Origin: an uncultured Gemmatimonadaceae bacterium
GTDB lineage: Bacteria > Gemmatimonadota > Gemmatimonadetes > Gemmatimonadales > Gemmatimonadaceae
Direction: 5' to 3'
Assembly (NCBI GenBank): GCA_964437225.1
Contig: CAYTFY010000003.1
Span: 609,077-673,076, forward strand
Length of the DNA stretch: 64,000 bases
Below, piece after piece: positions 1 to 64,000 of this stretch (position 1 is the first letter of the stretch; every line of letters starts with the position of its first letter). A model generated the notes under the pieces. It was given only the letters and a program-made list of their open reading frames with translations. It ran no database searches and was not told the origin of the DNA. A program made the translations under genes and the position numbers.

Positions 1-403
1 TGATGCCTCATTCGTTCCTATCACCCATACCGGAAATCTTCGCATGCTGCCAGGATCCGGGGACGACACCTTCGACAGTCTCGTTGCGGCAATGGGAAAA
101 GGCGTGGCGATTCGGTATCTGGGCGCACAGATGGACTTTCAGCAGTTGAATGGCTTTGCGCAAGGGCAGGCGTATGAAGTGAAGAATGGCAAACGTGTGG
201 CGCTTCTGACAAATGGTGCCATTCTATTTAGAACACCTGAGCTATGGAAAAATATTACCCAACTTGGTGGTGTTGCCTCGACGCGCCGATTCGGTCATGA
301 GCCGGGAAAGGGTGAACCATACCAGAGCGGATGTCATAGCGTGACCGCCGTACCAGCCGCGTTCAAGAATCTTTCGTTTATCAATTCCCTGAGAAAAGCA
401 TGA
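1..403 (+). CDS. TldD-like protein (PmbA/TldD superfamily), C-terminal fragment; gene starts left of the window (cassette 0)
   Basis: The frame is open from base 2. The translation (HTGNLRMLPGSGDDTF...EVKNGKRVALLTNGAILFRTPELWKNI...GKGEPYQSGCHSVTAVPAAF) parallels the C-termini of the full-length copies at 14477, 26904 and 40250. Confidence 0.8.
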   Translation, partial: DASFVPITHTGNLRMLPGSGDDTFDSLVAAMGKGVAIRYLGAQMDFQQLNGFAQGQAYEVKNGKRVALLTNGAILFRTPELWKNITQLGGVASTRRFGHEPGKGEPYQSGCHSVTAVPAAFKNLSFINSLRKA

Positions 404-1899
404 CGACAGCGGGACGCATCGTGGGACACACGATAGAACACGCCGGAATACCGGATGACCGCATGATGACTCGAGAGCAATGCGACCAGCTTGCTGTTCG
501 GATCTCTCGGTTAACAGAAGGCGGTGGGACCACCATGGTCCAGATATACAGTTGGTGGTTTGGTGAGCTGCGTTGGGCACGGAACCGAGTGACGCTCACG
601 AGCGACCGTCGCCAAACTCAACTCTTTATTCTGCGTTCGATTCGGAACTCGACTGGGAAAGCGTGGACCAATCTACTTGACGACGATTCCTTGCGCTCTG
701 CCGTACGCGCCGCGGAGCGAGTCAGTGCACTGTTCCCGGGAATGGAGGTAAACGACCTGCGACTGCCGCCTCCAGAACTTCCAACACCAACTCCTCTCAT
801 CTGGAGTGACGCCACATTCAATGCCACGGCGGAAATGCGCGGCGATATTGGGAGCTTTCTGTCGCAACACGCGGCGGTATCGTCGATGTTATCCGCCGGG
901 TTTCTTAAAATGAATAGCGGTGTCATTGCTCGACGACGGTTTGGTTTCGACAATTCAACGAACGGCACAGGTGATCAGGCGACTACTGCAGCGGATGGTC
1001 TGGAATCTTCTGGCACTGGATCAAACGTCCTGGAATATGAGCCATACACCATGAGCGAATGTTCCATGACCGTACGCGAGGCGAACGGCATGGGATCGGG
1101 ATGGGCCGGACTGTCGGGATACGACTGGTCGTCCATCAATGGCAAAGCACTCGCGGAACGTGCGTTGGAGAAATGTCTGAAATCACTGAATCCTGTGGCG
1201 ATAGAACCCGGACGATATACCGTCGTATTGGAACCCACCGCTGCGTTGCCCATGGTTAGCATGTTGGTGGCACAGGCGAGCAGAGTTGCAGCGGAGAGTG
1301 GGCGTGGTCCGTTTGTGTTGGGACGCGATAACACGCTTGGGTTATTCCGGACGAAGCTGGGGATGAAAGTTGTCGATCACCGAGTGACAATTTCGCACGA
1401 CCCAGACGATCCAGCGCTTGGAGAACTTGCACACTCGGGCACAACTCCCATAACCTGGATCGAAAATGGGATTCTCAAAACAATGACGAATGATCGTGAA
1501 ACGTATGCCCTTCCCAAGTTGAATGATAATCTTGGTTCCCTCGGACGTCGAAGCTTTCGTATGCAAGGCGGAGACACATCCATTGAAGAGATGATCGCGT
1601 CTACGCGACGCGGGTTGCTGGTAACGCGATTCGTGAATATGGTCCTGCTCGATTCCACCAGCGTACTGTGCACCGGATTAACCCGCGATGGACTTTGGTT
1701 GATCGAGCGCGGCGAAATTACCAAAGCGGTGAAAAATATGCGATTCACCGAATCTCCGTTGTTCATGTTGAACAATCTGGAACAGCTCGGAGTTGCGGTC
1801 CCGGTGTTTACCGCCTTTCGTCAGCAGCCAGCTCCGGTAATCGTTCCGGCGCTCAAGATCAACGATTTCAGCTTTACGTCCATGGTTGATTCAATCTAG
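400..1899 (+). CDS. PmbA/TldE-like protein (PmbA/TldD superfamily), no signal peptide (cassette 0)
   Basis: 499-aa ORF. The ATG overlaps the upstream TGA (ATGA). Family-typical segments are WWFGELRWARNRVTLTSDRR, GRYTVVLEPTAA, ITISHDPDDP, RRGLLVTRF, GLTRDGLWLIERGEI and RFTESPLFMLNN. It is paralogous to 16114, 28580 and 41875. Confidence 0.85.
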   Translation: MTTAGRIVGHTIEHAGIPDDRMMTREQCDQLAVRISRLTEGGGTTMVQIYSWWFGELRWARNRVTLTSDRRQTQLFILRSIRNSTGKAWTNLLDDDSLRSAVRAAERVSALFPGMEVNDLRLPPPELPTPTPLIWSDATFNATAEMRGDIGSFLSQHAAVSSMLSAGFLKMNSGVIARRRFGFDNSTNGTGDQATTAADGLESSGTGSNVLEYEPYTMSECSMTVREANGMGSGWAGLSGYDWSSINGKALAERALEKCLKSLNPVAIEPGRYTVVLEPTAALPMVSMLVAQASRVAAESGRGPFVLGRDNTLGLFRTKLGMKVVDHRVTISHDPDDPALGELAHSGTTPITWIENGILKTMTNDRETYALPKLNDNLGSLGRRSFRMQGGDTSIEEMIASTRRGLLVTRFVNMVLLDSTSVLCTGLTRDGLWLIERGEITKAVKNMRFTESPLFMLNNLEQLGVAVPVFTAFRQQPAPVIVPALKINDFSFTSMVDSI

Positions 1900-1908
1900 T
1901 CGCGAGTA

Positions 1909-3405
1909 ATGAACATGAATTCAGCAATGTATCGTTCCTGCAGGCTTGGCCGACGAGTTCGTCGTATCGGTCGCCATATCGTTCCCGTTTTGCTTGGCTT
2001 TGTGTGTACGGGCATGAGCGTGTTAGCGTGGCCATCTCTCGTCGTTGCTCAAGCGACACAAACACGGTTTCTCTGGCCGGACCGTCTCCCCGATGTAACA
2101 CGGTACGAAACTCCAGAGCAATGTTTGGCCGCAACACAGCGGATTCGGGATAGCGTGTTAGGTCCGCGCCAAATTGTGGCGATCACATCACCACGGGGTA
2201 CTCCTGAATCGCTGGCGTCGCCGAGGGCAGTGATCGATGCAGCGCAACAGTGTAGTGCGCGATGGCCATTGGAGCACGCGTCACTCGAAATATTCTACGC
2301 ACTCTTCCCCTTGTATCTACAAGCCGGACGAGATGCAGACGCCGACTCTCTCGCATCTCGACGCCTAGCTCGAGTGGCACATGATACAGGGGACGTGCGG
2401 TTTGCCGTAATCGATTCGATCGCGGCCGTCTATCTGTACGCGTCGCCCGCACGGATCAGTCGTGCTGAACCAATGCTCACGCTGCTTGGCGAAATCGAGA
2501 GCACAACCGACCAACGCTTTAGGCGATTCGATCATCTGCACACGCTTTTACAGCAAAGCGATGCACTCGGCGATACCATTCGCGCATATCGCGCGGCCGA
2601 AGAGATGACTCGGCTGGCCGCTGCCTTGCCGGATGCTGATCGGACTCAGGAGTGGTGGACACGGATCGGACGGTTTCAGGCGTATACAGGGTATGACTAT
2701 CTGAGCACTCAGAAGCAGTTCGACAGCCTTCGCATCAGTACGGCTGCATACGCAAAAGTCGTTCGCGCCAACTGGGCGTTTGCCAACCACGAATCTGTCG
2801 GTACCGTAGAGTTCCCGGTGGGATCGCCGGCGGCTCCGTTGCAGAGTACGTTCGTGTTTCCTCCGGTTCTTGAGACTCAGAGCGCTGGAGCGCCGAGATC
2901 TGATGTGAGGGGGAATGCGCTTGTGCGTCCGGCACCGGGTGTAATTTCATTGATTGTTTTTCTCGACCGATGCGATATGTTTGTGCTGCAGTGTCTGGAG
3001 ACCTATGCGACGATCAAACGGATTGCGAGCCAGTATTCGGAACTCGAATTGACGTTGAGCGCACAAACATACGGGTTTTTCTTTGATCAGAAACCGCCGG
3101 TTCCAAAGGAAGAAGCGGATCTATATCAAAAGTGGTGGTTGGAGTTTCATGCGCTACCAGCGATGTTGGCTGTTACGGAAACACCGTTTTGGCGAATTAC
3201 AGATCCCGATCGACGGCGCATTAATGAAGTGATCGATAATCGGAAGAATTATTCGTTTGGCAGTTGGGTGATTCGGCCGCAGATGGGGGTGTTGGTTGAC
3301 CGGGATGGGACGATTGTGTATACGAATATTTTGGGGCGAATGGCGGAGCGGCGGTTTGGGGAGTTGATTCGGATTTTACTTGAAGATCGCGCTGTCCATC
3401 GGTAA
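1909..3405 (+). CDS. Cassette-terminal secreted protein of unknown function; helical N-domain plus thioredoxin-fold-like C-domain without CxxC (cassette 0)
   Basis: 498-aa ORF with a signal-like N-terminus (VPVLLGFVCTGMSVLAWPSLVVAQA). It carries the conserved motif WPD...VTRYETPEQCLAA. The C-terminal pattern is ISLIVFLDRC...LELTLSAQ...ITDPDRRRINEV...VLVDRDGTIVY. Paralogs are at 17525, 30000 and 43350. Confidence 0.7.
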   Translation: MNMNSAMYRSCRLGRRVRRIGRHIVPVLLGFVCTGMSVLAWPSLVVAQATQTRFLWPDRLPDVTRYETPEQCLAATQRIRDSVLGPRQIVAITSPRGTPESLASPRAVIDAAQQCSARWPLEHASLEIFYALFPLYLQAGRDADADSLASRRLARVAHDTGDVRFAVIDSIAAVYLYASPARISRAEPMLTLLGEIESTTDQRFRRFDHLHTLLQQSDALGDTIRAYRAAEEMTRLAAALPDADRTQEWWTRIGRFQAYTGYDYLSTQKQFDSLRISTAAYAKVVRANWAFANHESVGTVEFPVGSPAAPLQSTFVFPPVLETQSAGAPRSDVRGNALVRPAPGVISLIVFLDRCDMFVLQCLETYATIKRIASQYSELELTLSAQTYGFFFDQKPPVPKEEADLYQKWWLEFHALPAMLAVTETPFWRITDPDRRRINEVIDNRKNYSFGSWVIRPQMGVLVDRDGTIVYTNILGRMAERRFGELIRILLEDRAVHR

Positions 3406-6662: not shown

Positions 6663-7289
6663 TTGAACTTGCGAAATCCTAGAGTGATGCACGACGACCC
6701 GAATCACCAGGACGTAAACTCCGTACGTGAAGGTGATCAACATATCGTCGCAAGCATTCGGCAAGGCGATCATGTGGCGTTTGCCGCGTTATTCAAAACG
6801 TTCGCGCCGCTGCTCTATCGTATCGCGTTCAGTTACCTACGGTCCGACGCCACCGCGAAAGATATCGTACAAGACATAATGTTCTCCTTCTGGAAAAATC
6901 GCCAGACTCTGATCATTACAGAGACACTCCACGCCTATCTAACCTCCGCAACAAGAAAGCGTGCACTCAAAGTACTGGTGAGCACATCACGCTCTGATAA
7001 GTACGTCGAAGCCTATTCATGGGAAGACGACATCCCTGGCATGGGCCAGCATACGGACGATCCTGAACGACAGGTTGAAACAAACGACGTAACTGTCGCG
7101 ATCATCGACGCCGTTGAAAAACTTCCCGAACGGTATCGGCGAGTTCTCATGCTTCGGGCAACAGAGCAACTCTCTTATCCAGAGATCGCAGAGCTCCTTG
7201 GCCTCCCTCTAAAGACAGTCAAAACTCAAGCGCGTCGTGGGATGGAGCGACTGCAGAGGGTTCTCGCACGTTACTTCCCGCTGCCATAA
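6663..7289 (+). CDS. ECF-type RNA polymerase sigma factor (cassette 1)
   Basis: Region 2 is DIVQDIMFSFWKNRQTL. Region 4 is LPERYRRVLMLRATEQLSYPEIAELLGLPLKTVKTQARRGMERL. The ORF-track start is TTG, and an in-frame ATG at 6687 is an alternative. Confidence 0.85.
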   Translation: MNLRNPRVMHDDPNHQDVNSVREGDQHIVASIRQGDHVAFAALFKTFAPLLYRIAFSYLRSDATAKDIVQDIMFSFWKNRQTLIITETLHAYLTSATRKRALKVLVSTSRSDKYVEAYSWEDDIPGMGQHTDDPERQVETNDVTVAIIDAVEKLPERYRRVLMLRATEQLSYPEIAELLGLPLKTVKTQARRGMERLQRVLARYFPLP

Positions 7290-7398
7290 TACGCGAAGAC
7301 CGTCTGGATAATCGGGGTGGTTTTTTGCCTCTTTCAAAAAAAATGAAGCCTTTTTGTGCCGTCGGGGAACCTACATACAGAGCCCCCCGACGGTATTT

Positions 7399-8481
7399 AT
7401 GGATAACCCTGATCTAAATTCCAACTTGGAGACTCCAGACGCGCTAGTGTTGGAGTCCTACTTTGCTGGTGACTGCAGTAAATACGAAACTCAACGCATT
7501 GAGTCTTGGATCTCTGCTCATCCGCAACACCAAGACTATGTCGAGGCGATGCGGTTAGCATGGAGGCAATTAGGGCATCCAACGCAAATTCCAGCATACA
7601 ATGTGGAAGTCGAATTGTTGCGATTGAGCCGAGCGATCCAAGAGGAGTGGGATACGGTTTCGGTGCAACCTTCTCAGGTTAGTGAGTTTACCGACCGGAT
7701 ACTTCGATCGCAAACGGTTGCTGCTTCTACACGTTGGCCGTCTCGAAATGTTGTTCGTACGTTTGGGATCGCAATAGGCGGTCTTTGTACAGCGATCGTA
7801 TTGATCTTTTCGGGATCATATTGGACACGTCGCTCCGTCGACCAAACGCTCTCGCAGCAGGTGTCTACATATTCCACGACGCCAGGAAAGCAGGCGAGTG
7901 TCGTGTTGCCTGATGGAAGTACTGTGATTCTCAATGTTGATAGTCGTCTCGACGTTCCTTCGGACTATGCTACAGGAAATCGTACGATTCATTTGTCTGG
8001 TGAAGCGCTCTTCACAGTCAATCATGTGGAACATGACCCATTTATTGTCGTTGCCGGACCGAGTACAACGCGTGTGTTGGGCACCCGGTTTGTCGTACGA
8101 CACTATGTAACGGATACTATGGCGGTTATTGCTGTAGAAGATGGAAAAGTTGCGGTGGAGTCCACGGTATTGACTGCGGCGCAACAAGTCTCGGTTGGGG
8201 AGCGAGGGGCCGTATCAGATGTCACCCCGGTGCAACTAGGACGTTTTTCTTTTGCGCGCGGTGTGTTAACGCTCGACAACGTCCCACTTTCCGCGGCATT
8301 GGCCGACCTCAGTCGTTGGTATGACGCCACCCTTCAACTCGGCGATCCAGCGCTGGCAGATCGCATATTGATTGGACGGTTCACCACGGGTTCGATTTCG
8401 GATCTTGTTGAGAATCTTGAATGGGCATTCCAACTGCGTGTCGTGCGAAATGGCCGCACATTAACACTCTATCCAAAGTGA
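7399..8481 (+). CDS. FecR-family anti-sigma factor / transmembrane sensor (cassette 1)
   Basis: N-terminal anti-sigma motif (LESYFAGDCSKYETQRIESWISAHP). TM segment FGIAIGGLCTAIVLIF. FecR domain (VVLPDGSTVILNVDSRLDV...LSGEALFTV...TRVLGTRFVVRHY). C-terminal LSAALADLSRWYD. Confidence 0.85.
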   Translation: MDNPDLNSNLETPDALVLESYFAGDCSKYETQRIESWISAHPQHQDYVEAMRLAWRQLGHPTQIPAYNVEVELLRLSRAIQEEWDTVSVQPSQVSEFTDRILRSQTVAASTRWPSRNVVRTFGIAIGGLCTAIVLIFSGSYWTRRSVDQTLSQQVSTYSTTPGKQASVVLPDGSTVILNVDSRLDVPSDYATGNRTIHLSGEALFTVNHVEHDPFIVVAGPSTTRVLGTRFVVRHYVTDTMAVIAVEDGKVAVESTVLTAAQQVSVGERGAVSDVTPVQLGRFSFARGVLTLDNVPLSAALADLSRWYDATLQLGDPALADRILIGRFTTGSISDLVENLEWAFQLRVVRNGRTLTLYPK

Positions 8482-8490: not shown

Positions 8491-11400
8491 ATGTGGAGAA
8501 TCGGATATTACGAGATGCGATCACCTCTTCAGACCTCCAGGATATTCTTGGTTGGCTCGTTAGTAATCTCGACGGTATGGACGAGCATCGGAATTTCGAT
8601 ACTGAGTGCACAAGCAACACCCCAAGAGGCAACGATTGAGGCAACCTCAATGGTTGTTGGAACACGCAATGCCGCGAATCGACAGCAAGATAAGAAAGTT
8701 ACATTGACGGTACGCGACAGTACCATTCGATATATCATTCATGCACTTGCCGCCCAAACCAATATGATGTTGGTCGGTGACGTCACCGACCAATCACTGT
8801 CAAAGCGAATCTCCGTTCAGTTTAATAATACAAGTCTCTCAAAGGCACTCGCCACCGCGCTGAATGGAACCGAACTCGTCGCTGGGCTTTCATCCGATGG
8901 TGAGACAATTCTGATTCGGAAAAGAGGTGCAGATTCCATCACAACGCAGACGCGAAGTGGAGATATCGTTGGAACCGTTACCGATTCCGCTACCGGGAAG
9001 GGAATTGTCGGTGTCATCGTTAGCATCGTTGGAACAAAGTTGGGAACTACGACGAAAGACGAAGGGCGATATATGCTGGGTAAGGTCCCCGCCGGAGAGC
9101 ATCGTATCAACTACAAGCTGTTTGGGTATAAATTCATCACGAGAGTTGTCACTGTTGTGGAAGGAAAATCAACAACGATGCATGTTGTCATGGCTCCCAC
9201 TGCAACACAACTCTCTGGAGTTGTAACCACTGCGACAGGGTTACAGCGGAAAGTAGAAGTAGGGAATGATATCACCCAGCTTAGCGTCCCTGAGGTGATC
9301 AAGACAATGCCGGTGTCGAACATGAGTGAACTGTTGGCGACGCGGGTCCCTGGTCTGGAAGTCGCACCCACATCGGGAGCACCCGGGGCTCCTTCAAGAA
9401 TACGCATTCGGGGAGTTAGTAGCATTAACGCTACAAATGATCCGATCATCATTGTAGATGGCATCCGAGTGTACGCGGCTCAGACTAATTACAGTGGCTC
9501 CTCCCCGAATGGCGTATTGCAGTCTTCGCCTATCGATCAGCTGGATGTGAACAATATTGAAACGGTAGAAGTGCTCAAAGGGCCATCCGCGGTAGCGTTG
9601 TATGGCTCTGATGCTGCCAATGGTGTAATCGTCATCACATCAAAACGTGGACAGGTCGGTTCGCCCAGATGGGATGCGCAGGCGATATTTGGAGTGACGA
9701 CTGACCCCGGGAAGTGGCCGTTGAACTATTGGATGTGGGGGCACCAACCCCCGTTCGAATCAAGTGTGATGCAATGTACCGTAGGAACGACCTGGTGTGT
9801 GCAGGATAGTTTAGCTAGGTATCAATTGCTGAATGATCCGGCGACGACGGTCTTTGCTCGTGGAAGCACCCAGGAGTATCGGACGAACGTCAGCGGTGGT
9901 CGATCTGGAATGACATACGTCTTGTCAGCCTCATCCAGTCGTGAATTGGGGGCACTCAAGTTGCCAGATGCTGATGTGGCGGTCCTGCGGCGTCTTGGCG
10001 CCACCATACCTGCCTGGCAGCGGCGTCCCCAACAGAACTCTGTACAGAGTGTGCAGGCGACAGTTGGGCTTGATATCGGGAGTAATTCGGATGTTTTGCT
10101 CACGAACAGCGTCACGCAGAATACGAATCTTACCACGCCTTGGTCGAGTGCAATCGAAGTCACAAAACGGATGCCTCTCGATGCACAGTCAGTCGCCGAA
10201 ATTCCCGATTCGCTCTGGGGGAGTGGGGCGTTGTATGAGATCCCCGACTTTCGTGCTAAAACAACAACGAAGGTATTAGGGTTCCGCAATAGCGTAAATC
10301 TCAACACCAGATGGCCATATGCTATCACCACGCAGGCCACAACTGGTGTCGAAGTCCGTCGGGGACAGGATATCACTAAGCTCGAGCGCGGTGCTTGCAT
10401 GGAGGCGGGGTTCGCTCGTGCTTGCGGTCCGACTGAGTTCAATGGGTATTACAATGTTGGGCGACAGAATAGTTTAATCCCGACCGTGAACCTTCGTGCG
10501 AGTCAGCAGCAAGCATTGAACCGGTGGTTATCCTTGCGAACCTCAGTTGGGATGAATTATACGTCCGATCGGTTTGATTACGTATACATGTATGGGTCCG
10601 ACATCCCGGCTGGTGCGAACTCCCCCGACTTGGCTGTGTCCAGATCCGGAAATGAGAATCGTAGTGTGCAGACCACTGCGGGAGGATATGTAGAGATGTT
10701 AATCGGAGTGGCCGACCGGTTTTTCATTCCTCTAGCGTTGCGCAACGATGCGGGAAACGCATTAGGTCCTCAGGTCACAGTGAAACTCCCAAAACTATCG
10801 TGGTCATATCTGATGTCGGAAGAACCGTGGTTTCAGGATATTCCGGTCCTCAGAAAGTTGTCAGTATTTCGGCCACGTGTAGCGTATGGGCAAGCAGGAG
10901 TGCAACCAAAGGTCGGTGGTGGTACTCGTACGTATATGTTCAATAATGGAGTGATTGATGGGAGCACGGTTCCCTACGTGACCATCAGTTCTCCTGGTAA
11001 CTCCAAGCTGTTACCTGAACGAACTCGAGAATTGGAAGGCGGCTTTGACGCCGAGGTTGGCCAATGGATAAATCTTGGATTGACTTGGTATCATAAAAAA
11101 ACCTACGACATGCTTACCACGGAACCAACCGCAGCCTCGGCGGGATTTGGCGAGCGACCGGCTACCTACAATCTGGGAGATGTGCTTAATACCGGCTTTG
11201 AGGGACACCTCGAAGGGACGCTGGTGGATAAGCGAATGGTTCGAGTGGATACTCGCTTGAGTATCTCAGGGAATAGAAATCGACTGCTCAGGCTGGGAGT
11301 GAATACTGAAGATCGAGCGAGGCAGACAAACAGCGGTGCCAGTCAAAATCGAGTTGGATATCCTCTCAATGGAGTATGGGTGTATCCGATCGTTGCTGTG

Positions 11401-13295: not shown

Positions 13296-13371
13296 GCAGA
13301 CACTGGCGAGTCGTGCGACACAACAGCTGTCGAGAACACAATCACTGACCGGGCGATGCTGGTTTCGTCCG

Positions 13372-50802: not shown

Positions 50803-50808
50803 AGATGA

Positions 50809-52230: not shown

Positions 52231-52236
52231 TGTGTT

Positions 52237-53076: not shown

Positions 53077-53095
53077 GATGCTGGAATAATAGCAT

Positions 53096-55262: not shown

Positions 55263-55958
55263 ATGACGTTTTCTGCTGATCTGCGTGCCTTCGCATCGTC
55301 TCAATTCGATGACGATGCCGGTGGTATACAACCAGGGAAACGACCGCAGGGAGAAAGATCTCGTCCCACCATCATCCTCGCCGCATCGCTCATTAGCCGA
55401 GTACAAGCGCGCGACGCCGACGCGTTCCGCGAATTGGTTCAAACGCTCTACGTTCCACTCGTTCGATTCGCGCGTTCCCTCCTTGGCTCACATGATGATG
55501 CCAAAGATGTCGTACAGGACGTATTAGCTCTTGTCTGGGACTTGGGTCCACGTTGGATACCAAATGGCGATCCGGTCGCATATCTATTTGCCAGCGTACG
55601 TAACCACGCGTTAAAAGAAATACGTCGTCGAGACCGCGCACACCAACGCGCTCAACGGGCACACAGTGTTGATTTGGCCGTTCCCGGTAACCCTGAAGCT
55701 ACAGAGCACCCCAACGCGCTCGACCAAGTCATAGAAACCGAAGTCGATATCGTGCATCGACAACATGTGAGCATAGTTCTGTCAACACTCTCGGAGCGCT
55801 ATCGTACTGTCTACGAACTCCGCTACCGACGAGGGCTCTCTGTGTCTGCTATTGCGGAAGTCCTGGGTACGTCTGTGAAGAGCGCAGAACACCTGACCGC
55901 GCGAGTCACGCAGATGGTACTCGAACGGCTTCGACAAAGAATTTCAAGAATTATTTAG
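55263..55958 (+). CDS. ECF-type sigma factor with N-terminal extension (cassette 4)
   Basis: Region 2 is DVVQDVLALVWDLGPRW. Region 4 is LSERYRTVYELRYRRGLSVSAIAEVLGTSVKSAEHLTAR. The N-terminal ADLRAFASSQFDDDAGG parallels the cassette 2 sigma. Confidence 0.85.
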   Translation: MTFSADLRAFASSQFDDDAGGIQPGKRPQGERSRPTIILAASLISRVQARDADAFRELVQTLYVPLVRFARSLLGSHDDAKDVVQDVLALVWDLGPRWIPNGDPVAYLFASVRNHALKEIRRRDRAHQRAQRAHSVDLAVPGNPEATEHPNALDQVIETEVDIVHRQHVSIVLSTLSERYRTVYELRYRRGLSVSAIAEVLGTSVKSAEHLTARVTQMVLERLRQRISRII

Positions 55959-55998
55959 AAAACCGGGGGTTTGGGTGCGTCGGCGGGATGTACCAGGT

Positions 55999-57078
55999 AT
56001 GAGAGACGACTCGTTCACTTTACCGCGACCCACCGATGCGATGCCTGACCCCCGACTGATTGAGCGGTACGTCGCGGGCGAATGCACGCTGCCGGAGCGA
56101 GTGGTAATACAACGATGGATAGCTGTGAACCCGAATTGGGGTGATGCCTTAGCAGCTATGCGTTGTGACAGCGCGCACGAGCTTGCAGGGAGAGAAGAGT
56201 CGATTGATGAGCGTGCTGAAACACAGCAACTGTTCGCACGAGTTGGATTGCAAAATCTCGATAATGCGAACATGCCGGAGAATGGATGGGCCGAGACCGC
56301 ATCTGCGCCCTCAGACGTTCGTCGAGTCCGCAACGCATATTTTGGGTTCAGCGTACGTCGTATCGCATATGGAGTTGCAGCGACCGGCCTGTGTCTTGTG
56401 ATCGCCGCTGTGACGGTTCTCGGATGGGCCCGATCTGCAGAGCCGACCACCGTTCCCGTTTCTACCTACACAACAGGAAATGGTGAACGCGCGACGATCA
56501 AGCTCCCTGACGGAAGCACCGTTGTGCTCAACGTCGCCAGTCGTCTCGAAGTGCCGATCGACTATCTTGAAGGGCATCGCGCGTTGCGATTGGAAGGTGA
56601 AGCGAGGTTCTCTGTTGTTGCACAATCAGACGCACCGTTTACTGTGGAGTCTGGTAAGACAGTGACACGTGTGCTTGGGACACGCTTCGTTGTTCGCCAT
56701 TACGAGACCGATCCGTCGACTATGGTTGCGGTGCACGACGGGAAAGTTGCCGTCAACGGTGCTGTCTTGACTGGCGCACAGCGCGCCGAAATCTTTGCAA
56801 ATGGTGAGACCATTGTGTCCAGGGTCACTGACATGGATAACACATTTGCCGATGGTGTACTCATACTGCGCGGTGCGTTGCTATCCGATGCTATTACTGA
56901 TCTCAATCGATGGTACGACGTAGATGTACGAATTGTTGATTCGTCTCTTGCCACCCGTCGGTTAGATGCAAAATTGGATGCTGGATCGCCATCTGATTTG
57001 CAGACGATTCTGGAGTTGACCTTTGGTGTGCGCGTGGTGCGCGATGGACGAGTTCTTTCTCTGTACTCCGGGCGATGA
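55999..57078 (+). CDS. FecR-family anti-sigma factor (cassette 4)
   Basis: The start is chosen at MRDDSFTLPRPTD by alignment with MSDTAFSLPKPTD of cassette 2. Contains YVAGECTLPERVVIQRWIAVNP. TM segment GVAATGLCLVIAAVTVLGW. FecR domain (IKLPDGSTVVLNVASRLEV...TRVLGTRFVVRHY). Confidence 0.85.
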   Translation: MRDDSFTLPRPTDAMPDPRLIERYVAGECTLPERVVIQRWIAVNPNWGDALAAMRCDSAHELAGREESIDERAETQQLFARVGLQNLDNANMPENGWAETASAPSDVRRVRNAYFGFSVRRIAYGVAATGLCLVIAAVTVLGWARSAEPTTVPVSTYTTGNGERATIKLPDGSTVVLNVASRLEVPIDYLEGHRALRLEGEARFSVVAQSDAPFTVESGKTVTRVLGTRFVVRHYETDPSTMVAVHDGKVAVNGAVLTGAQRAEIFANGETIVSRVTDMDNTFADGVLILRGALLSDAITDLNRWYDVDVRIVDSSLATRRLDAKLDAGSPSDLQTILELTFGVRVVRDGRVLSLYSGR

Positions 57079-60000
57079 GTGTGCGAACAAAACAATATTT
57101 GATGTGTGGAGTGATGGTAGGTTTAACTGGTATGATGCCCACGACGGTGGTGTGTGCACAATCGGAGATTGGGACGCAGACCGACGCGCGATATACGGTG
57201 CAATCCGGGAGAGTTGCTGTGCAAGAGGACGATAAGGCGCAGCCACAGAAACGTGATAGTAAAACGTCGGAACGTTCCGTCACACTTAATGTGCGCGACA
57301 GTTCAATGTTGTATGTCATCAATGAGATATCACGGCAGGCTGGGCTCCGCATTGCATTCGATCGAACCTTATCGCAGTTCAAATCGAAGGTGAGTCTGAA
57401 CGTTACACAGATGAAGCCAGCGGCTGCGTTGGCCGTTGCCGTAAAGAGTTCGGGGTTGGAGGTGGTAGTGGCGCCTGATGGGCGAACTGTTGTCATTCGT
57501 CCGAGCACAAAAGATGGTGCTGGGAGATCCGAATTACAGGATACAGGAGCGGTATTCGTTCGTGTGACGGATTCGGCGTCCGGCCAGCGGATTTCTGGAG
57601 TGACTGTCGCCATCACGGGAACAAAGATCGTGGGAACTACCAATGGACAGGGAGAGCTTCGATTGATGAATGTTCCACTTGGAGACCGATTAGTGACGAT
57701 TAAAATGTTTGGTTATCGTCCGACCAGCCGTGCCATTGAGGTGAATAAGGAGAAGCCGACCTATCTTCTCATCGCGTTAGTATCCATCCCGACAGCATTA
57801 TCTGGAGTTGTTACTACAGCAACAGGAATGCAACGCAAGCTCGAGATCGGGAATTCCATTACATCGATTAATGTCGATTCGGTGATGAACGTTGCGCCAA
57901 TTGCGACGTTGACTGATTTGTTGGAAACGCGGGTCCCGGGATTGATAGTGCAGCATACGTCAGGCGCACCCGGAGATCCATCTCGTATTCGAATTCGTGG
58001 TTCGAGTAGCATTACGAGAAGTAATGATCCGATTGTAATTGTGGATGGGATTCGCGTGTACGGGGATCAGTCTGTTGGGCAGAGCCAGAACTTATCGCAA
58101 CAGGACGCTGGGCAAGGGGGGCTCAACATCATGCAAGCCAGAACTCCTTCACTCGCGCCGTCACCGCTAGATCAGATCGACCCGAACAGCATTGAGACGA
58201 TCGACGTATTCAAAGGTCCGAGTGCTGCCGCACTGTACGGGTCGGACGCCGCGAATGGAGTTATCGTGATAACCACTAAACGTGGCCGTCCGGGAAAGAC
58301 GCAGTGGACCGTGGCTCTCAATCAGGGCATTCAATACCTTCCCGGGAAGTATCCAGAAGGTACGTATCAGTTTGGGCATATCGAGGGTAGTTCATTCCAA
58401 TACGGAACTTTACGTTGTCCACAATCAGTGCTGCTAGCTGGTACGGCGGGGTGCGTCGTCGACAGCCTAGTACGGTTTCAGGCGCTCAACGATTCGCGAT
58501 ACACCATTCTCGGTCACGGTTTAAATAGTGGAGCCAGTATGACGGTGCGAGGCGGGGTTTCAAATCTGCAATATGCGCTGACTGGCACGGGCTCAAGTAC
58601 GCTGGGCCTACTTCGCCTACCAGCGGCCGAAGTGGAACGTTTCACAGCTTTGCATAGCCGACGGCCTCCTGAATGGATGCGGCGACCCCAAACCTATAAC
58701 ACGTGGGGGGGAACGGGCTCAGTCACGGCCCAGGTCAACCCCCGAACTTCCGTTACGCTGTCGAGTGCATTATTTCATAGCAACCAACAGCGCTCATCCC
58801 TGGAGTCCGCACTACCCGCGCTTGCGGAAACGTATCTCGATCCGGCATTACTGGGTGAGAGTCCGATCATTAACGACTTCTATCGACGTGCAACATCGGA
58901 GGGGCTCACGTCGCGGAACAGTCTACAATTACAATGGGTGCCGATTTCGTGGCTTCCCGTGACTGCGACCGCAGGGCTCAATATAGGGACGCGCACCGAT
59001 CAGACACTCGTCCCCCGTGGGTATCTAACCTCGGTCGTCGATAGCAGCGGACGGTTTGCCATTGGAAAGGGCAGTGATCAGACTCGCTCGTTTTCGGTAA
59101 ATACCAGCGTCCCGTTTCCATGGATGAGAACCGTACTTGCCCTGGGATTCAGTGGGAACGCTCAGTCCGTCGCCACCGTGCGGGCGCAAACAAATGTCAT
59201 TCCCCCGGGAGTCGACCTACCAACCGTGTTTCCCACTGATCAAGTCAACGTGAGCAGTATCAGCCAAAGCACCACGGCAGGAGCGACTTATGGCTGGTTT
59301 GTTGAGCCGCGCTTGAATGTGACCTCGCGTTTCTTCGTGATGGCAGGGTTGCGCTTGGATAACAACGGACTGGCTGGAGCACGGGCCGGAATTATGGGTC
59401 TTCCGAAGATGAACTTCTCATGGATCGCCTCCGAGGAGCCGTTCTTTCCTTGGAAGGGTCTGTTCACGACGTTACGACTGCGGACAGCTATCGGCTCCAG
59501 TGGAGTGCAGCCAGCGCCAACCGATCGTCTTCGTACCTATGCTGTGTTGACGAGTGCGGACATCAATGCGGCGAGTCTGTCCTCGACCACAGTCGTTTCG
59601 AATCAGCAACTGCTTGGACTAAATACGCTCGGCAATACACAACTTCGGCCAGAGCGATCCCGGGAGTTGGAGGGAGGCTTCGATGCCGACCTATGGAACA
59701 ACCGATTGCATGTGGAGGTGACGCGATATCAAAAGACGAAACAGGATGCGATTCTCAGCATTCTGCTCGCGCCGTCGTTGGGTGGCTACAGCTCCTCGCA
59801 ATCCATCAATATAGGAGTGGTGCGAAACACAGGGCTCGAAATGAACCTCAGCACGCAAGTGCTCGATCTGCAGCAGGTCCGATGGACTGTAGGGACCTTG
59901 ATCAGTCGGAATAATAATGTGGTGGTTCGCCTCAACCCAGGGCAAAGTGCAATCACGTTTCCAGAAGCCGGGGTGGTTGGCAGCACGCGGGTGGTGCCAG

Positions 60001-60608
60001 GATACCCGCTGTTCGGGCGATGGGTGAGGCCGATAGCGGGGTTCGCAGATGCCAATGATGACGGTTTCATTGATCGGAGTGAAGTGCGCATCAGCGATAG
60101 TTTAGTCTACGTCGGGCGGCAGGAGCCCGACTACACCATGACGATGAATACCTCGGCAACCTTTTTAGGAAAATTCAGTGTTAATGCGTCTCTCAGCTAC
60201 CAGCACGGCGTTGTGCAAGTGAACAATGCGCGGAGCACAAACTCGGGAGATAGCCCATTTTCTCCCGTCGGTCCGGATGTGCCGCTTAGCACGCAGGCGG
60301 CATACGCGGCATTGAGTTCTGGGGTGATTACGACCGAGTCGGGGACCGCGTACGGATTCATCCAATCAGTGAACACGCTACGTTTTGAGACATTCTCGGT
60401 GTCTTATAACATGCCACAGACTGTTGCTCAATGGTTGCGAGGGCGCTCGATGCTTCTTTCTCTACAAGGGAGCAATCTAGGCCTTCGGACGAATTACCGG
60501 GGCAAGGACCCTAGCGTTGGGGCAAGAGCGACGGGGTACAGCATCATCGACGATGGGCAGGTTCCGTTGCCACGCAAATGGGAACTTCGCGTACAGGTGG
60601 GCAACTAA
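57075..60608 (+). CDS. SusC-like TonB-dependent transducer with STN domain (cassette 4)
   Basis: ATGA overlap with the FecR stop. STN (VTLNVRDSSMLYVINEISRQAGLRIAF). CarboxypepD_reg (VRVTDSASGQRISGVTVAITGTKI). Plug (DPIVIVDGIRVY, IETIDVFKGPSAAALYGSDAANGVIVITTKRG). Barrel end LQGSNLGLRTNYRGKDPSV. Confidence 0.9.
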   Translation: MSVRTKQYLMCGVMVGLTGMMPTTVVCAQSEIGTQTDARYTVQSGRVAVQEDDKAQPQKRDSKTSERSVTLNVRDSSMLYVINEISRQAGLRIAFDRTLSQFKSKVSLNVTQMKPAAALAVAVKSSGLEVVVAPDGRTVVIRPSTKDGAGRSELQDTGAVFVRVTDSASGQRISGVTVAITGTKIVGTTNGQGELRLMNVPLGDRLVTIKMFGYRPTSRAIEVNKEKPTYLLIALVSIPTALSGVVTTATGMQRKLEIGNSITSINVDSVMNVAPIATLTDLLETRVPGLIVQHTSGAPGDPSRIRIRGSSSITRSNDPIVIVDGIRVYGDQSVGQSQNLSQQDAGQGGLNIMQARTPSLAPSPLDQIDPNSIETIDVFKGPSAAALYGSDAANGVIVITTKRGRPGKTQWTVALNQGIQYLPGKYPEGTYQFGHIEGSSFQYGTLRCPQSVLLAGTAGCVVDSLVRFQALNDSRYTILGHGLNSGASMTVRGGVSNLQYALTGTGSSTLGLLRLPAAEVERFTALHSRRPPEWMRRPQTYNTWGGTGSVTAQVNPRTSVTLSSALFHSNQQRSSLESALPALAETYLDPALLGESPIINDFYRRATSEGLTSRNSLQLQWVPISWLPVTATAGLNIGTRTDQTLVPRGYLTSVVDSSGRFAIGKGSDQTRSFSVNTSVPFPWMRTVLALGFSGNAQSVATVRAQTNVIPPGVDLPTVFPTDQVNVSSISQSTTAGATYGWFVEPRLNVTSRFFVMAGLRLDNNGLAGARAGIMGLPKMNFSWIASEEPFFPWKGLFTTLRLRTAIGSSGVQPAPTDRLRTYAVLTSADINAASLSSTTVVSNQQLLGLNTLGNTQLRPERSRELEGGFDADLWNNRLHVEVTRYQKTKQDAILSILLAPSLGGYSSSQSINIGVVRNTGLEMNLSTQVLDLQQVRWTVGTLISRNNNVVVRLNPGQSAITFPEAGVVGSTRVVPGYPLFGRWVRPIAGFADANDDGFIDRSEVRISDSLVYVGRQEPDYTMTMNTSATFLGKFSVNASLSYQHGVVQVNNARSTNSGDSPFSPVGPDVPLSTQAAYAALSSGVITTESGTAYGFIQSVNTLRFETFSVSYNMPQTVAQWLRGRSMLLSLQGSNLGLRTNYRGKDPSVGARATGYSIIDDGQVPLPRKWELRVQVGN

Positions 60609-62014
60609 TGCGCTCAAGCATACAGATTGGACGAAGTGTCATCCTGGGTGTTGTGCTCGCCGGGGGGGCCGGTTGTGATATGATCGGCACACCAGAGCTG
60701 CCCGCTGGCACGCAGAAGGTAGAAAACTTCAATACGCTAGACGGCGCAATGGGACTCTATCGAACAGCAGTACTCCAGTTCGGTCCCGTAGTGGTAGAAG
60801 CGTCACTTTTGGGCGGTGTACTGAGCGATGAGCTACAGGCGAATGCACTTCTGGGCAATACAGATTTGAACACCGCTGCTGCGCTAAGTGTGACGGATAA
60901 TGCAATTGTTTTGACTGATGCGCGGCAATTAGGCGTAAACACGTTCAACTCCTACACGCAGTTGCAGACGCTTCGCAACCAGACGAGACAGGCAATCAGC
61001 GTCTTCGCCAGGTATGCTCCGACTGCGGTGCCTACCGTACGCGGAGAGCTCTATGCTATTCAAGGTTACGCGGAGATCTTGCTCGCAGAGCTCTTTTGCT
61101 CAGGGGTGCCACTCAGCACGATCGAACTCGACCAGGACTATACGTACCGGCCTGGCTCGACTACGACACAGGTGTATGAACATGCGGTAGCACTGTTCGA
61201 TACCGCACTTGTGTTGAGCGTCGACAGCGCGCGAGTACTGAACTTAGCACGTGTAGGCAAAGGGCGGACGCTCCTTGCGCTCGGTCGCTATGCCGAGGCG
61301 GCACAAGCCGTGGCCGATGTGCCGGCGGGGTTTCAGTACCAGCAAGCGCTCACTTGGCGCAGGCCGAGCCTCGGTACGCTCTTTATGGTAACCATAGCCG
61401 ATCAAGAAGGGGGAGTTGGGCTCGCATATCGGACAAGCCGAGATCCACGTACCGATACTGTCTTTGTAGGAACGAACGACTATGGGATGCGGCTATTTTT
61501 GCCGAAGAAGTCGTACGCGACACCAACCAATGCCGCGCGCCCGTTCGTTCTTGCGGACTGGGTCGAGGCGCGACTCATACAGGCCGAAGCGCAATTGCAG
61601 GCCGATGACGTGGCTGGCTGGTTACTGACGCTCAACGCGCTGCGTACAGACGGTACCTTCACGGTGATTACCCAGCCCTTGCCCTCCACGGGAGTGGATA
61701 CGGTGTGGGGGCTTGGCACAGCCAAAGTCAACGAGCAAACGGTCGGCGTTCGGCCGCTTCGTGACCCTGGCACACAGGCGACACGAATCGACAGCCTCTT
61801 CGCCGATCGTGCGTTCTGGTTATACCTGACGGGGCATCGGCAAGGGGATTTGCGCCGTATGATCCGCGAGTATCGGCGGGATGCCGACTCGGTCTATCCT
61901 GTTGGCGGTTATCCTGGGACTGGGCTCCAATATGGCTCCGAGATCGCGTTGCCGATTCCGGATACAGAGTTTAGAAACCCTCTTTTTCGTGGATGTTTAA
62001 GCAATGAGGCGTGA
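60608..62014 (+). CDS. SusD/RagB-like lipoprotein (cassette 4)
   Basis: TAATG overlap with the SusC stop. Lipobox in MRSSIQIGRSVILGVVLAGGAGC. Contains EILLAELFCSGVPLST and DRAFWLYLTGHRQGDLRRM. Confidence 0.75.
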   Translation: MRSSIQIGRSVILGVVLAGGAGCDMIGTPELPAGTQKVENFNTLDGAMGLYRTAVLQFGPVVVEASLLGGVLSDELQANALLGNTDLNTAAALSVTDNAIVLTDARQLGVNTFNSYTQLQTLRNQTRQAISVFARYAPTAVPTVRGELYAIQGYAEILLAELFCSGVPLSTIELDQDYTYRPGSTTTQVYEHAVALFDTALVLSVDSARVLNLARVGKGRTLLALGRYAEAAQAVADVPAGFQYQQALTWRRPSLGTLFMVTIADQEGGVGLAYRTSRDPRTDTVFVGTNDYGMRLFLPKKSYATPTNAARPFVLADWVEARLIQAEAQLQADDVAGWLLTLNALRTDGTFTVITQPLPSTGVDTVWGLGTAKVNEQTVGVRPLRDPGTQATRIDSLFADRAFWLYLTGHRQGDLRRMIREYRRDADSVYPVGGYPGTGLQYGSEIALPIPDTEFRNPLFRGCLSNEA

Positions 62015-63056
62015 ATACTTGCTGATGCCGAAGACCGAGCATTTCTTGTGGGGAGTTCTACTGATGGCTGTCGGAGGCGGATGCGTGCCAGATCTTGTTA
62101 CTCGGCCTGCGCAAGATCCAGCGGAGCTATTCTGGGCTCTGAAGCTCAATCATCGCGCAATTACGTTGGACGTGACTGCGCCTTACGACACCGTTCAGCT
62201 CGTAGCGACGCCGAAAAACGTCGATGGTATCCCGCTTACCGCGCCTCCTGCCGTCAGGTACAGCACATTGGATACAACAATTCGTCTGAGTCCAACTGGT
62301 TTTGTTCGGGCGAGCTCTGTGACAGCCAGTACAGGTGCGCGTGTGATCGCGTCACTCACGGTGAATGGGGTTTCATTGGCGGATACAGCGTTCATTCGCG
62401 TCACGAAAAATTTAGTTCCCAGTCTACTGGATACTTTTGCGATCACGCGAGTGGTGGGAGACAGTGCCAAGGTAGCCTTTGGGATGGCTGCGCCGACACT
62501 CTCGGTTACTGCAAACAACGACGCTGGCGCGTCGATGTCGCCGCCCGTGTATTATCGATCATTGAATGAGAGGGTTGCCACGATCAATCGGGTGACGGGA
62601 GCAATCAAGATCAAAACGATTGGCAAGGTTACCTTCATCGTCACGTCGCGCGTCTACGGTGATATCCGCGAGGATTCGCTTCCTTTCACAGTGGGCTTTC
62701 CACTGTTGACGATCGTAGCGGCGAAGGCGCGTCCCTCTGCGACCGGAACTACTCCATTGAGTTACTTCGATGCTTCCGTGATCACTTTGGGAGTAGGCGG
62801 AGAAGTGAATTTTCTGAATATGTCGGGACGGTCTGTCGACATCGTGTTCGATACGCCATCCGCGGTGGCAGGGACTACTCGAAATGGACAATCCCTCAGT
62901 GACAGTGGAAATATCGCTGCCTTTGAGAGCGGTAGTCCCAGTCTTTTTGCTGGTGCATCGTTGCGAGCTCGCCGATTCCCAGTTGCAGGCACATACCACT
63001 TTCGTAGCACGTTGTACCCCGAGGCCACTGGGACCATCCTGGTGAAAGCTGAATGA
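62004..63056 (+). CDS. Big_2-like / cupredoxin-like surface lipoprotein (cassette 4)
   Basis: Lipobox LLMAVGGGC. Contains LDVTAPYDTVQLVATPKNVDG. C-terminus VGGEVNFLNMSGRSVDIVFDTP...VAGTYHFRSTLYPEATGTILVKAE. Confidence 0.7.
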   Translation: MRREYLLMPKTEHFLWGVLLMAVGGGCVPDLVTRPAQDPAELFWALKLNHRAITLDVTAPYDTVQLVATPKNVDGIPLTAPPAVRYSTLDTTIRLSPTGFVRASSVTASTGARVIASLTVNGVSLADTAFIRVTKNLVPSLLDTFAITRVVGDSAKVAFGMAAPTLSVTANNDAGASMSPPVYYRSLNERVATINRVTGAIKIKTIGKVTFIVTSRVYGDIREDSLPFTVGFPLLTIVAAKARPSATGTTPLSYFDASVITLGVGGEVNFLNMSGRSVDIVFDTPSAVAGTTRNGQSLSDSGNIAAFESGSPSLFAGASLRARRFPVAGTYHFRSTLYPEATGTILVKAE

Positions 63057-63084
63057 GCTTCGTTCCTATCTAAACAAAACGCAC

Positions 63085-64000
63085 ATGACTTCACAATTTA
63101 CCCGGCGTGACTTCGTCCGTCTGAGTTCGCTGACGGCACTCTCGACCGGTGCCAGTCGTACGGCCGGCGCCACGTTAGCGAATCGTTTACCTTCGCAGAC
63201 GCAACGCTTGGTTGGGCTGACTGATGCGCCGTTGGGCCAGCTTCTTGATCCAGCCGGTGTCCGTCTACTAGCCGAGCGTGCGATTGAGGCGGCACGCGCC
63301 GCTGGAGCTTCCTACGCCGATGTTCGACTCACCCGGACTATTAAGGAAGCCTTCAGCGGGGAATCCTTGCAGGCCCGCTACACCTCGACAATTTGGGGAG
63401 GTGAACGGCTTGGTGTCCACGACAAGGCCCCAACCGACGACGAAGCGTTTGGCGTTGGCGTGCGAGCACTCGTGGACGGTTGCTGGGGGTTTGCCTCCAG
63501 TTCTCGCTGGACCTTCGAGGAGATGCCGCGCTTGGCGCAGGCAGCCGTACAGCAGGCGAAGAAGAATGCGGCGGCTACGCCACGTCGTACTGAGCTTGTC
63601 CCTGTAGCTGCGACAACGGGGAGTTGGCGGCCCGCCGAGGTTATCGATCCCTTTCTCATTGCACCCGAAGAGAAACTCGAACACCTGCGCGCGTTGACTG
63701 ACTACCTTGTGCCAAAACGAATCCCGCCACGTCCAAGTGAGGAGAGGAAGTGGGCTGCGAAATTTGAGTTCGCTTTTACGCGCCAGGAGTGGGCGCTGGC
63801 GACGAGTGAAGGCACCTACTGTACCCAGCAGCGCTACACTTCTAATGGGGACATAACGCTGGGGGTGATGATGAGTAGAATGGGAGGGTATGGGGGTGAG
63901 AGTATGAGTGCAGGCTGGCCGGGCTTGATGGCGCAGGGGTGGGAATACTGCGAGCGGACAGCAGCGCTCGCTCGCTTGGACGCAGCAGTTGAGCTGTATT
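63085..64000 (+). CDS. Tat-signal TldD-like protein, N-terminal part; runs off the right edge (cassette 4)
   Basis: Not in the ORF track because no stop lies within the window. Hand translation from the ATG at 63085 gives MTSQFTRRDFVRLSSLTALSTGA...AIEAARAAGASYADVRLTR...FGVGVRALVDGCWGFASS. The frame stays open to base 64000. Confidence 0.8.
   Translation, partial: MTSQFTRRDFVRLSSLTALSTGASRTAGATLANRLPSQTQRLVGLTDAPLGQLLDPAGVRLLAERAIEAARAAGASYADVRLTRTIKEAFSGESLQARYTSTIWGGERLGVHDKAPTDDEAFGVGVRALVDGCWGFASSSRWTFEEMPRLAQAAVQQAKKNAAATPRRTELVPVAATTGSWRPAEVIDPFLIAPEEKLEHLRALTDYLVPKRIPPRPSEERKWAAKFEFAFTRQEWALATSEGTYCTQQRYTSNGDITLGVMMSRMGGYGGESMSAGWPGLMAQGWEYCERTAALARLDAAVELY

Follow-up and report, generated by a model that had tools for sequence, protein, structure and literature searches.

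Tandem ECF-sigma-controlled SusCD-type import operons of Gemmatimonadota carry a TldD/PmbA-like pair without the protease metal site

What does a bacterium take up when it repeats the genes of a SusCD-type importer five times, each time together with a pair of protease-like genes and without any recognisable glycan-degrading enzyme? This question is raised by a stretch of 64,000 nucleotides from an uncultured Gemmatimonadaceae bacterium (GenBank assembly GCA_964437225.1, contig CAYTFY010000003.1, positions 609,077 to 673,076), the whole of which is called the window below. According to the list of open reading frames (ORFs), the window holds five cassettes, all on the plus strand, with genes in the order extracytoplasmic function (ECF) sigma factor, FecR anti-sigma factor, SusC-like transporter with an STN domain, SusD-like lipoprotein, surface lipoprotein, TldD-like protein, PmbA-like protein and an unannotated last gene. 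Three of them are full eight-gene runs (C2, 6663-18925; C3, 19190-31445; C4, 32476-44960) and two are cut by the window ends, C1 (2-3405) retaining the last three genes and C5 (55263 to the window end) the first six. Hidden Markov models (HMMs) built from the window's own genes detect 33 cassette genes and no extra fragments, and cassette DNA occupies about 44 kb of the 64 kb. Our firm conclusion is that every cassette forms a self-contained Gemmatimonadota operon for SusCD-type import, under the control of an ECF sigma factor and with a fixed trio of periplasmic proteins. Our preferred reading of that trio, to which we give a probability of roughly 45%, is that the TldD/PmbA-like shell is a non-catalytic periplasmic receptor or holder for imported cargo that works with the last protein.

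An earlier analysis of the letters alone (the sequence-only reading) had described five copies of the same order, three full and two partial, as uptake loci with five separate sigma/anti-sigma/STN-SusC circuits. The copies were recovered at essentially the same coordinates by the ORF list and the HMMs, and the circuits are supported by Pfam, NCBIfam and a family profile of STN. On the other hand, its implicit framing in terms of the polysaccharide utilization loci (PULs) of Bacteroidota was off, since the host and its relatives are Gemmatimonadota (Gemmatimonadaceae/Gemmatimonadales).

In Pfam and NCBIfam, the first two genes encode Sigma70_r2/r4_2 and FecR plus FecR_C proteins, respectively, and they adjoin the transporter gene as in FecIRA-type signalling. 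The transporter belongs to the SusC class of TonB-dependent transporters, with Plug and CarbopepD_reg in all window copies (Pfam) and the SusC/RagA signature TIGR04057 over its cut-off in the C2 copy (50.7 bits vs 46.2; NCBIfam); TIGR04056 reached 327 bits, under its cut-off of 368. In single SusC sequences, STN was under the Pfam cut-off in C2 and C3 and was not seen in C4 and C5. The domain is taken as present because a profile of the N-terminal extension from 44 sequences matches PilQ N0 (E 1e-8) and the signalling domains of FpvA (3e-6), PupA (7e-5) and HasR (0.03). The fourth gene probably encodes a SusD-like lid, though the likeness is weak at the sequence level: SusD_RagB is matched below the Pfam cut-off in two of four copies (E 0.002-0.01), and a 47-sequence profile searched against the PDB gave SusD structures as three of its top four matches at E values of only 0.008-0.06. 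A lipobox is present, and the position and size of the gene are as expected for SusD. A scan of 17-34 kb for promoters and terminators gave no more sites than shuffled sequence, so that the operon boundaries rest on gene spacing only.

The reading of the trio depends mainly on the TldD-like subunit. PmbA_TldD domains (PF01523, PF19290 and PF19289) are found in two adjacent paralogous genes, as in TldD/TldE, so the family assignment of the sequence-only reading was correct. The TldD-like profile aligns to Escherichia coli TldD (5nj5, E 2e-4), and a single TldD-like sequence gave no match to the PDB by sequence. E. coli TldD binds Zn or Fe via H262 and H267 of an HExxxH motif and C454, the position of the latter being Asp in Gemmatimonas; E263 serves in acid-base catalysis and the H262A exchange alone abolishes activity, E270, D272 and K456 are structural tethers of the clamp, and the TldD/E cleft binds extended peptides independently of their sequence (PMC5810440).

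We compared 72 TldD-like proteins with this site, namely 20 stand-alone ones from Gemmatimonadota, Pyrinomonadaceae and KSB1, which have no SusCD, sigma or last gene nearby, and 52 cassette-type ones inside octet operons, from the window and from related loci in metagenome-assembled genomes (MAGs) of Gemmatimonadaceae/Gemmatimonadales. HExxxH is kept in all 20 stand-alone proteins (IHESIGHPTELDR), as are Asp as the third ligand (100%) and the structural Glu, Asp and Lys. In contrast, HExxxH is found in none of the 52 cassette-type proteins, nor in any of the 120 closest homologues that the C4 copy has in the database; in all the cassette-type proteins both His and the catalytic Glu are gone and the three positions are variable. 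The third ligand is also gone in 52 of 52, the set in which this column was examined, and its column is variable with Ser as the commonest residue (25%). On the other hand, E319, D321 and K524, which correspond to E270, D272 and K456 of E. coli, are conserved at 77-96% in the cassette clade. No replacement metal site is apparent, since no new conserved His or Cys occurs in the cassette TldD-like proteins, and the PmbA-like subunit, which never carries HExxxH, has only Cys229 (numbering of the 16114-17535 protein). Cys229 is present in 94% of the cassette-type proteins and is Ala in 95% of the stand-alone clade. Other clade-specific conserved residues are R266 and E270 in the PmbA-like protein and E107, E133, E183, D186 and D549 in the TldD-like one. 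According to these alignments, the ancestors of the TldD-like subunit were periplasmic TldD homologues with a metal site, a kind still present in the same phylum. Because HExxxH and the third ligand are absent, TldD-type catalysis would not be expected. The sequence-only reading had put forward peptide processing of TldD/E type; against this stands a metal site of which nothing is left in the 52 cassette-type TldD-like proteins. Public annotation of this clade, which comprises more than 3,300 clusters at 90% identity, reads "TldD protein", "TldD/PmbA family protein" or "Predicted Zn-dependent protease", and the label of Zn-dependent protease is contradicted by the sequence for the cassette-type clade.

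A twin-arginine translocation (Tat) motif of RRxF type is found in all four readable TldD-like copies of the window and in 113 of the 120 homologues, whereas no hydrophobic N-terminal signal is found in the PmbA-like proteins, so that one subunit only carries the twin-arginine signal. The start codons of the PmbA-like genes overlap the TldD stop in C1-C3.

The last gene has no Pfam or NCBIfam family. An AlphaFold2 model of the C2 protein (mean predicted local distance difference test, pLDDT, 80.7) comprises a signal peptide, a helical repeat at about 50-278 and a C-terminal thioredoxin/peroxiredoxin/TlpA-like fold, for which Foldseek returned the Bcp1/TlpA-like domains 3drn, 3eyt, 3fw2 and 3fkf with probability 1.0 and target template-modelling scores of 0.64-0.72. 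The C-terminal domain is therefore modelled as a thioredoxin fold, as the sequence-only reading had guessed, but without CxxC: that motif occurs anywhere in only 2 of 158 family members and no Cys of the domain is invariant, so neither a conserved CxxC nor a peroxidatic Cys exists. In many members, not including the C2 copy, two extra Cys separated by a long variable insert stand at the place of the thioredoxin CxxC. Two Cys of the helical domain (residues 54 and 102 of the 17525-18925 protein) are invariant across 53 sequences, and a PDxRR motif is present in 108 of 158 members. By sequence, the family profile matched only designed helical repeats in the PDB. The family amounts to 1,347 clusters at 50% identity (E <= 1e-3).

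The surface lipoprotein is similarly uninformative in Pfam, which gives Big_2 only, in C3 and C4 only. The AlphaFold2 model of the C3 copy (pLDDT 74) has three beta-sandwich domains that match solely immunoglobulin (Ig), S-layer and cadherin arrays in structure comparison, not enzyme folds. The C-terminal 100 residues or so correspond to a plastocyanin/amicyanin-type cupredoxin in the search of the profile against the PDB (1pcs, E 3.3e-8, and amicyanins as well), and the four columns aligned with the copper ligands hold no His, Cys or Met in any of 36 family members. The lipoprotein thus appears to consist of Ig-like domains and a copper-less cupredoxin domain. Both models rest on shallow alignments (17 sequences for the last protein and 7 for the lipoprotein), and neither models nor profiles revealed an enzyme fold in the two proteins. 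Taken together, the cupredoxin, TldD and thioredoxin accessory proteins are descendants of metal or redox folds without the cofactor sites.

Enzymes are equally scarce around these genes. No glycoside hydrolase, lyase or esterase family, nor any other family of carbohydrate-active enzymes, was found among the window genes scanned with Pfam, no dbCAN scan having been made, which agrees with the absence noted in the sequence-only reading. It had also named flanking glycoside hydrolases as a sign against its view; none was found among the Pfam families shown for 101 flanking ORFs of 33 octet loci, again with no dbCAN scan, and no recurring enzyme is conserved in these flanks. Peptidase_M13 was the commonest family (4 of the 101 ORFs), and M1 and PF04228 zinc peptidases were found once each. 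These peptidases are a hint of peptide metabolism, but a faint one, because some surveyed loci overlap on the same contig, which may inflate the count. An AbgT transporter was also found in the flanks.

Is this architecture peculiar to the window? Related loci were collected by scanning one genome per species with patterns from the PmbA-like alignment, as the alignment of the last protein (17 sequences) was too diverged for DNA search patterns, and their genes were called from stop-to-stop ORFs with the window-built HMMs. The 75 loci returned are nearly all from MAGs of Gemmatimonadaceae or Gemmatimonadales, and about 45 of them keep the octet order as far as the contigs extend, often in tandem. 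Among the carriers of the octet are MAGs labelled Gemmatimonas aurantiaca (L010, L068). An independent assembly (L001) shows this order too, and the MAG JBEBRK01 has 18 pattern-matched copies with more in their flanks (at least 18).

The tandem copies are real but did not arise by recent amplification. Pairwise identity among the window copies is 27-47% for sigma, 27-48% for FecR, 30-48% for SusC, 32-42% for SusD, 24-30% for the lipoprotein, 38-44% for the TldD-like protein, 40-51% for the PmbA-like protein and 24-29% for the last protein, and the duplications must be ancient because the paralogues are thus only 24-51% identical. For sigma, SusC, SusD and the lipoprotein, the two most similar copies are those of C3 and C5, and the partial TldD does not follow this pairing; simple duplication of whole cassettes as the entire history was therefore rejected. 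Across 34 complete cassettes (C2-C4 and those of the related loci), the identity matrices of the components correlate with one another (Spearman 0.58-0.83, with no correction for phylogeny), and this correlation fits inheritance as a unit. The best-correlated pair is the TldD-like protein with the last protein (0.83 vs 0.58-0.79 for the others), which hints at physical contact of both.

The trio itself behaves as a separable module, because TldD-like/PmbA-like/last triplets without their own sigma, anti-sigma, SusC or SusD occur at L017:14277-18694, L032:3225-8093 and L034:8304-12774, directly after another cassette or triplet. A contig of a fen Gemmatimonadetes (L054:1-5494) carries SusC-SusD-TldD-PmbA with no lipoprotein and no last gene detected, and its TldD-like protein has already lost HExxxH (LSASLAPAAELDRA). 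This may be an intermediate architecture.

How would such an operon work? The surface lipoprotein and the SusD lid would catch the ligand, and TonB would pull it through SusC; STN would relay the occupancy to the anti-sigma factor, by which the sigma factor would be freed and the operon induced. We infer from the sequences that the TldD/PmbA-like pair, whose genes overlap or abut, may fold in the cytoplasm and leave via Tat as a heterodimer in which PmbA would travel as a hitchhiker. Once in the periplasm, the shell would be hollow and unable to cut, and would serve, probably in concert with the last protein, as a cassette-specific receptor or holder of cargo. The cargo would most likely be an extended, peptide-like chain, which is plausible because the TldD/E cleft binds extended peptides, and general periplasmic peptidases would see to its breakdown, if any. 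Each of the many diverged copies would handle a ligand of its own.

Several points weigh against a non-catalytic receptor. The peptide-like nature of the cargo is deduced solely from the origin of the TldD/E fold. Within the cassette, conservation is highest in the TldD-like and PmbA-like proteins (mean pairwise identity 42-45% vs 26-38% for the others), a pattern that a new active site, and hence an enzyme, would explain as well. At the equivalent of the brace residue Arg362, only 63% of the cassette clade have His and the rest vary, so that the peptide cleft may be remodelled. Moreover, no inner-membrane transporter is encoded in the cassette, the Spearman correlations of the components take no account of phylogeny, and the heterodimer, the Tat hitchhiking and the contact with the last protein are themselves deductions.

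A bolder version, which we hold to be doubtful, regards the shell and its thioredoxin-fold/helical-repeat partner as a new periplasmic machine, either an enzyme whose active site has escaped recognition and whose substrate would be a polymer of an unknown class, or a ratchet-like receptor by which unfolded polypeptide would be drawn through SusC. If it were true, the main nutrient-acquisition strategy of soil Gemmatimonadota would be defined, as PULs define that of Bacteroidota.

The main rival to the receptor reading is a shell with a different catalytic centre, acting on a non-peptide or unusual polymer, so that the cassettes would be analogues of PULs built around an undescribed enzyme family. 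The strong conservation of the pair, the lack of any other enzyme in the cassette and the clade-specific acidic residues, Cys229 and R266 would all suit this idea, but no new His/Cys cluster or recognisable motif has appeared, the residues are known as alignment columns only and may or may not line the cavity, and non-protease catalysis in a TldD fold is without known precedent. We regard this rival as unlikely, though it deserves more weight than those that follow.

Pure signalling and metallophore uptake are less likely than both the receptor and the new-enzyme readings. As a sensor array, the cassettes would be mainly cell-surface signalling inputs, in which the periplasmic module tunes the anti-sigma factor without handling nutrients. 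Sigma, anti-sigma and STN are indeed kept in every copy, and neither a catabolic enzyme nor an inner-membrane transporter is encoded. However, characterised FecIRA-type circuits need no such accessory proteins, the probable SusD lid and the surface lipoprotein are import machinery, and the triplets of L017, L032 and L034 exist without an adjacent sigma factor or transporter, so that we give this idea little chance.

Still less can be said for an active metalloprotease of TldD/E type that degrades or matures an imported, possibly modified peptide. The Pfam family of both genes, the adjacent and translationally coupled pair resembling TldD/TldE, the active-site motif kept by stand-alone relatives of the same phylum and the M13, M1 and PF04228 peptidases sometimes nearby all speak for it. 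They are outweighed by the fact that the 52 cassette-type copies lack all three metal ligands as well as the catalytic Glu and that the 120 homologues lack HExxxH, by replaced positions that are not conserved even inside the cassette clade, and by the inactivity of E. coli H262A (PMC5810440). Finally, uptake of metals or metallophores, with the degenerate cupredoxin, TldD and thioredoxin folds as metallochaperones, is scarcely credible: ECF/FecR/STN circuits classically control siderophore and haem uptake and each of the three accessory folds goes back to a metal or redox protein, but the metal and redox ligands are precisely what was lost, and SusD-lidded transporters are not known for siderophores.

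Part of the remaining DNA of the window is listed in Table 1 with the cassettes. At 3726-6479 and 31562-32230, between cassettes, unrelated genes encode a 343-residue protein of unknown kind, a DinB_2 protein and, on the minus strand, RibD_C and glyoxalase-fold proteins, none of which recurs in the related loci. The stretch between C4 and C5 at 48571-53827 is low in G+C (0.43 at 52-54 kb vs about 0.53 elsewhere) and looks like an inserted island of defence type, its PADLOC matches being weak. At 44961-47300 and 54484-54903 beside it, only short overlapping ORFs are found, which may be gene remnants. A degraded sixth cassette at 45-55 kb was considered and rejected, as the window-derived HMMs match nothing there.

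Table 1. Genes of the five cassettes and of the region between C4 and C5, with positions in the window
Unit	Feature	Position	Strand	Evidence
C1	TldD-like, 3' end, cut by window start	2..403	+	Frame-2 translation; 51% identity to C4 TldD-like C-terminus; HMM match
C1	PmbA-like, no signal peptide	400..1899	+	PF19289 E 1.3e-26; 40-50% identity to other copies; start overlaps TldD stop by 4 nt
C1	Last gene (Sec signal, helical repeat, CxxC-less thioredoxin fold)	1909..3405	+	No Pfam/NCBIfam family; in last-gene family alignments
C2	ECF sigma	6663..7289	+	Sigma70_r2, r4_2, ECF
C2	FecR-type anti-sigma	7354..8481	+	FecR + FecR_C
C2	SusC-like, N-terminal STN-like extension	8491..11955	+	CarbopepD_reg, Plug, weak STN; TIGR04057 over cut-off; family STN profile
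C2	SusD-like lipoprotein, lipobox LTAC	11928..13295	+	SusD_RagB E 0.0097; family profile matches SusD structures
C2	Surface lipoprotein, Ig-like + Cu-less cupredoxin; probable start ~13372	13216..14487	+	Family alignment; cupredoxin profile; ligand columns
C2	TldD-like, Tat signal RRQFLQ, HExxxH replaced by SGTIGV	14450..16114	+	PmbA_TldD domains; TIGR01409 16.4 bits vs cut-off 16.7; alignment to E. coli TldD
C2	PmbA-like	16114..17535	+	PF19289 E 2.5e-26; 1-nt overlap with TldD stop
C2	Last gene (modelled copy)	17525..18925	+	pLDDT 80.7; helices 51-278; thioredoxin-like fold ~295-463; Foldseek 3drn, 3eyt, 3fw2, 3fkf
C3	ECF sigma	19190..19879	+	47% identity to C5 sigma; HMM match
C3	FecR-type anti-sigma	19930..21066	+	27-33% identity to other copies; HMM match
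C3	SusC-like	21063..24434	+	CarbopepD_reg_2, Plug, TonB_dep_Rec_b-barrel, STN 26.3 bits
C3	SusD-like lipoprotein	24404..25873	+	32-42% identity to other copies; member of SusD family profile
C3	Surface lipoprotein (modelled copy)	25877..26890	+	Big_2; three beta-sandwich domains; Ig/S-layer/cadherin-like matches only; C-terminal cupredoxin
C3	TldD-like, probable start 26904 (MPFSRRQFI), HExxxH replaced by DQTIGI	26643..28583	+	Pfam; alignments
C3	PmbA-like	28580..29959	+	PF19289 E 2e-28
C3	Last gene	30000..31445	+	Family alignment; no Pfam/NCBIfam family
C4	ECF sigma	32476..33135	+	Paralogue identity; HMM match
C4	FecR-type anti-sigma	33160..34293	+	Paralogue identity; HMM match
C4	SusC-like	34290..37757	+	CarbopepD_reg_2, Plug
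C4	SusD-like lipoprotein	37678..39114	+	SusD_RagB E 0.0022
C4	Surface lipoprotein, probable start ~39117	38796..40238	+	Big_2 weak; family alignment
C4	TldD-like, Tat signal RRDLLK, HExxxH replaced by SATIGS	40250..41872	+	Pfam; alignment; HExxxH in 0/120 database homologues
C4	PmbA-like, probable start ~41887	41713..43353	+	PF19289 E 1.3e-20; family alignment
C4	Last gene	43350..44960	+	Family alignment
Remnant (possible)	Beta-propeller fragment	46196..46912	-	PD40, WD40, Peptidase_S9_N, all under cut-off
Low-GC stretch	Unknown 396-residue protein	48571..49761	-	
Low-GC stretch	8xMP/DUF7701 membrane protein	49984..50802	-	
Low-GC stretch	ThsB-like TIR protein	50809..51501	-	
Low-GC stretch	HTH_3 protein	52213..53076	+	
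Low-GC stretch	Unknown 243-residue ORF	within 48571..53827	+	
Remnant (possible)	Sigma region-4 fragment, 139 residues	54484..54903	-	Pfam
C5	ECF sigma	55263..55958	+	Paralogue identity; HMM match
C5	FecR-type anti-sigma	55975..57078	+	Paralogue identity; HMM match
C5	SusC-like	57075..60608	+	Plug, CarbopepD_reg; 48% identity to C3 SusC
C5	SusD-like lipoprotein	60578..62014	+	42% identity to C3 SusD; no Pfam match by itself
C5	Surface lipoprotein	62004..63056	+	Family alignments
C5	TldD-like, 5' part, cut by window end, Tat signal TRRDFV	63085..64000	+	Translation; PmbA_TldD_1st + 2nd domains

Gemmatimonadota are abundant in soils and what they feed on is poorly understood, and the share of DNA that these genomes devote to one operon, in the window as in the MAG with at least 18 copies, is large. 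Identification of the ligands would reveal how import by SusCD-type systems operates outside Bacteroidota, and also what role a protease shell takes after the loss of its metal site. In the full-text literature, we found no paper that ties TldD, PmbA or U62 to SusC/SusD or TonB transporters, none on such loci in Gemmatimonadota and none on TldD/PmbA with twin-arginine signals, in line with the sequence-only reading, which knew of no characterised system with this architecture.

Among known systems, the closest are the PULs of Bacteroidota that are controlled by ECF sigma and anti-sigma factors, such as the O-glycan PULs of B. thetaiotaomicron, which likewise combine sigma, anti-sigma, SusC with a signalling extension and an extra lipoprotein in one operon, with a SusD lid to which the SusD-like protein of the cassettes probably corresponds, and occur as many diverged paralogous loci per genome. 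The cassettes differ from them in their host phylum, in the absence of glycoside hydrolases, lyases and esterases (Pfam) and in the fixed trio of a dead TldD-like protein, a PmbA-like protein and a CxxC-less thioredoxin-fold protein. RagAB of Porphyromonas gingivalis is a SusCD-type complex for non-glycan import with no CAZymes (carbohydrate-active enzymes) known in its locus; to our knowledge it has neither a sigma/anti-sigma circuit nor TldD/PmbA or thioredoxin-like partners. The FecIRA, FpvA and PupA systems share the ECF sigma factor, the FecR anti-sigma factor and STN on a TonB-dependent transporter, whereas the cassettes encode a SusC-class transporter, probably lidded by SusD. E. coli TldD/TldE belongs to the same PmbA_TldD family, with adjacent paralogous subunits and the conserved clamp-tethering Glu, Asp and Lys, but the cassette TldD-like protein has a Tat signal and lacks HExxxH and the third ligand; we know of no export signal on E. 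coli TldD/E. The C-terminal domain of the last protein finds its best structural matches in the TlpA-like 'thiol-disulfide oxidoreductase' C-terminal domains of Bacteroides (3fw2, 3fkf and 4k9z), although its family is nearly free of CxxC and has a helical-repeat domain with two invariant Cys that is not in those entries. In Bacteroidota, a gene for a TlpA-like protein is often the last of a sigma/anti-sigma/SusCD locus. Loci that join SusCD to cell-surface signalling are known, and what is new here is an undescribed and very widespread accessory module and a host phylum outside Bacteroidota.

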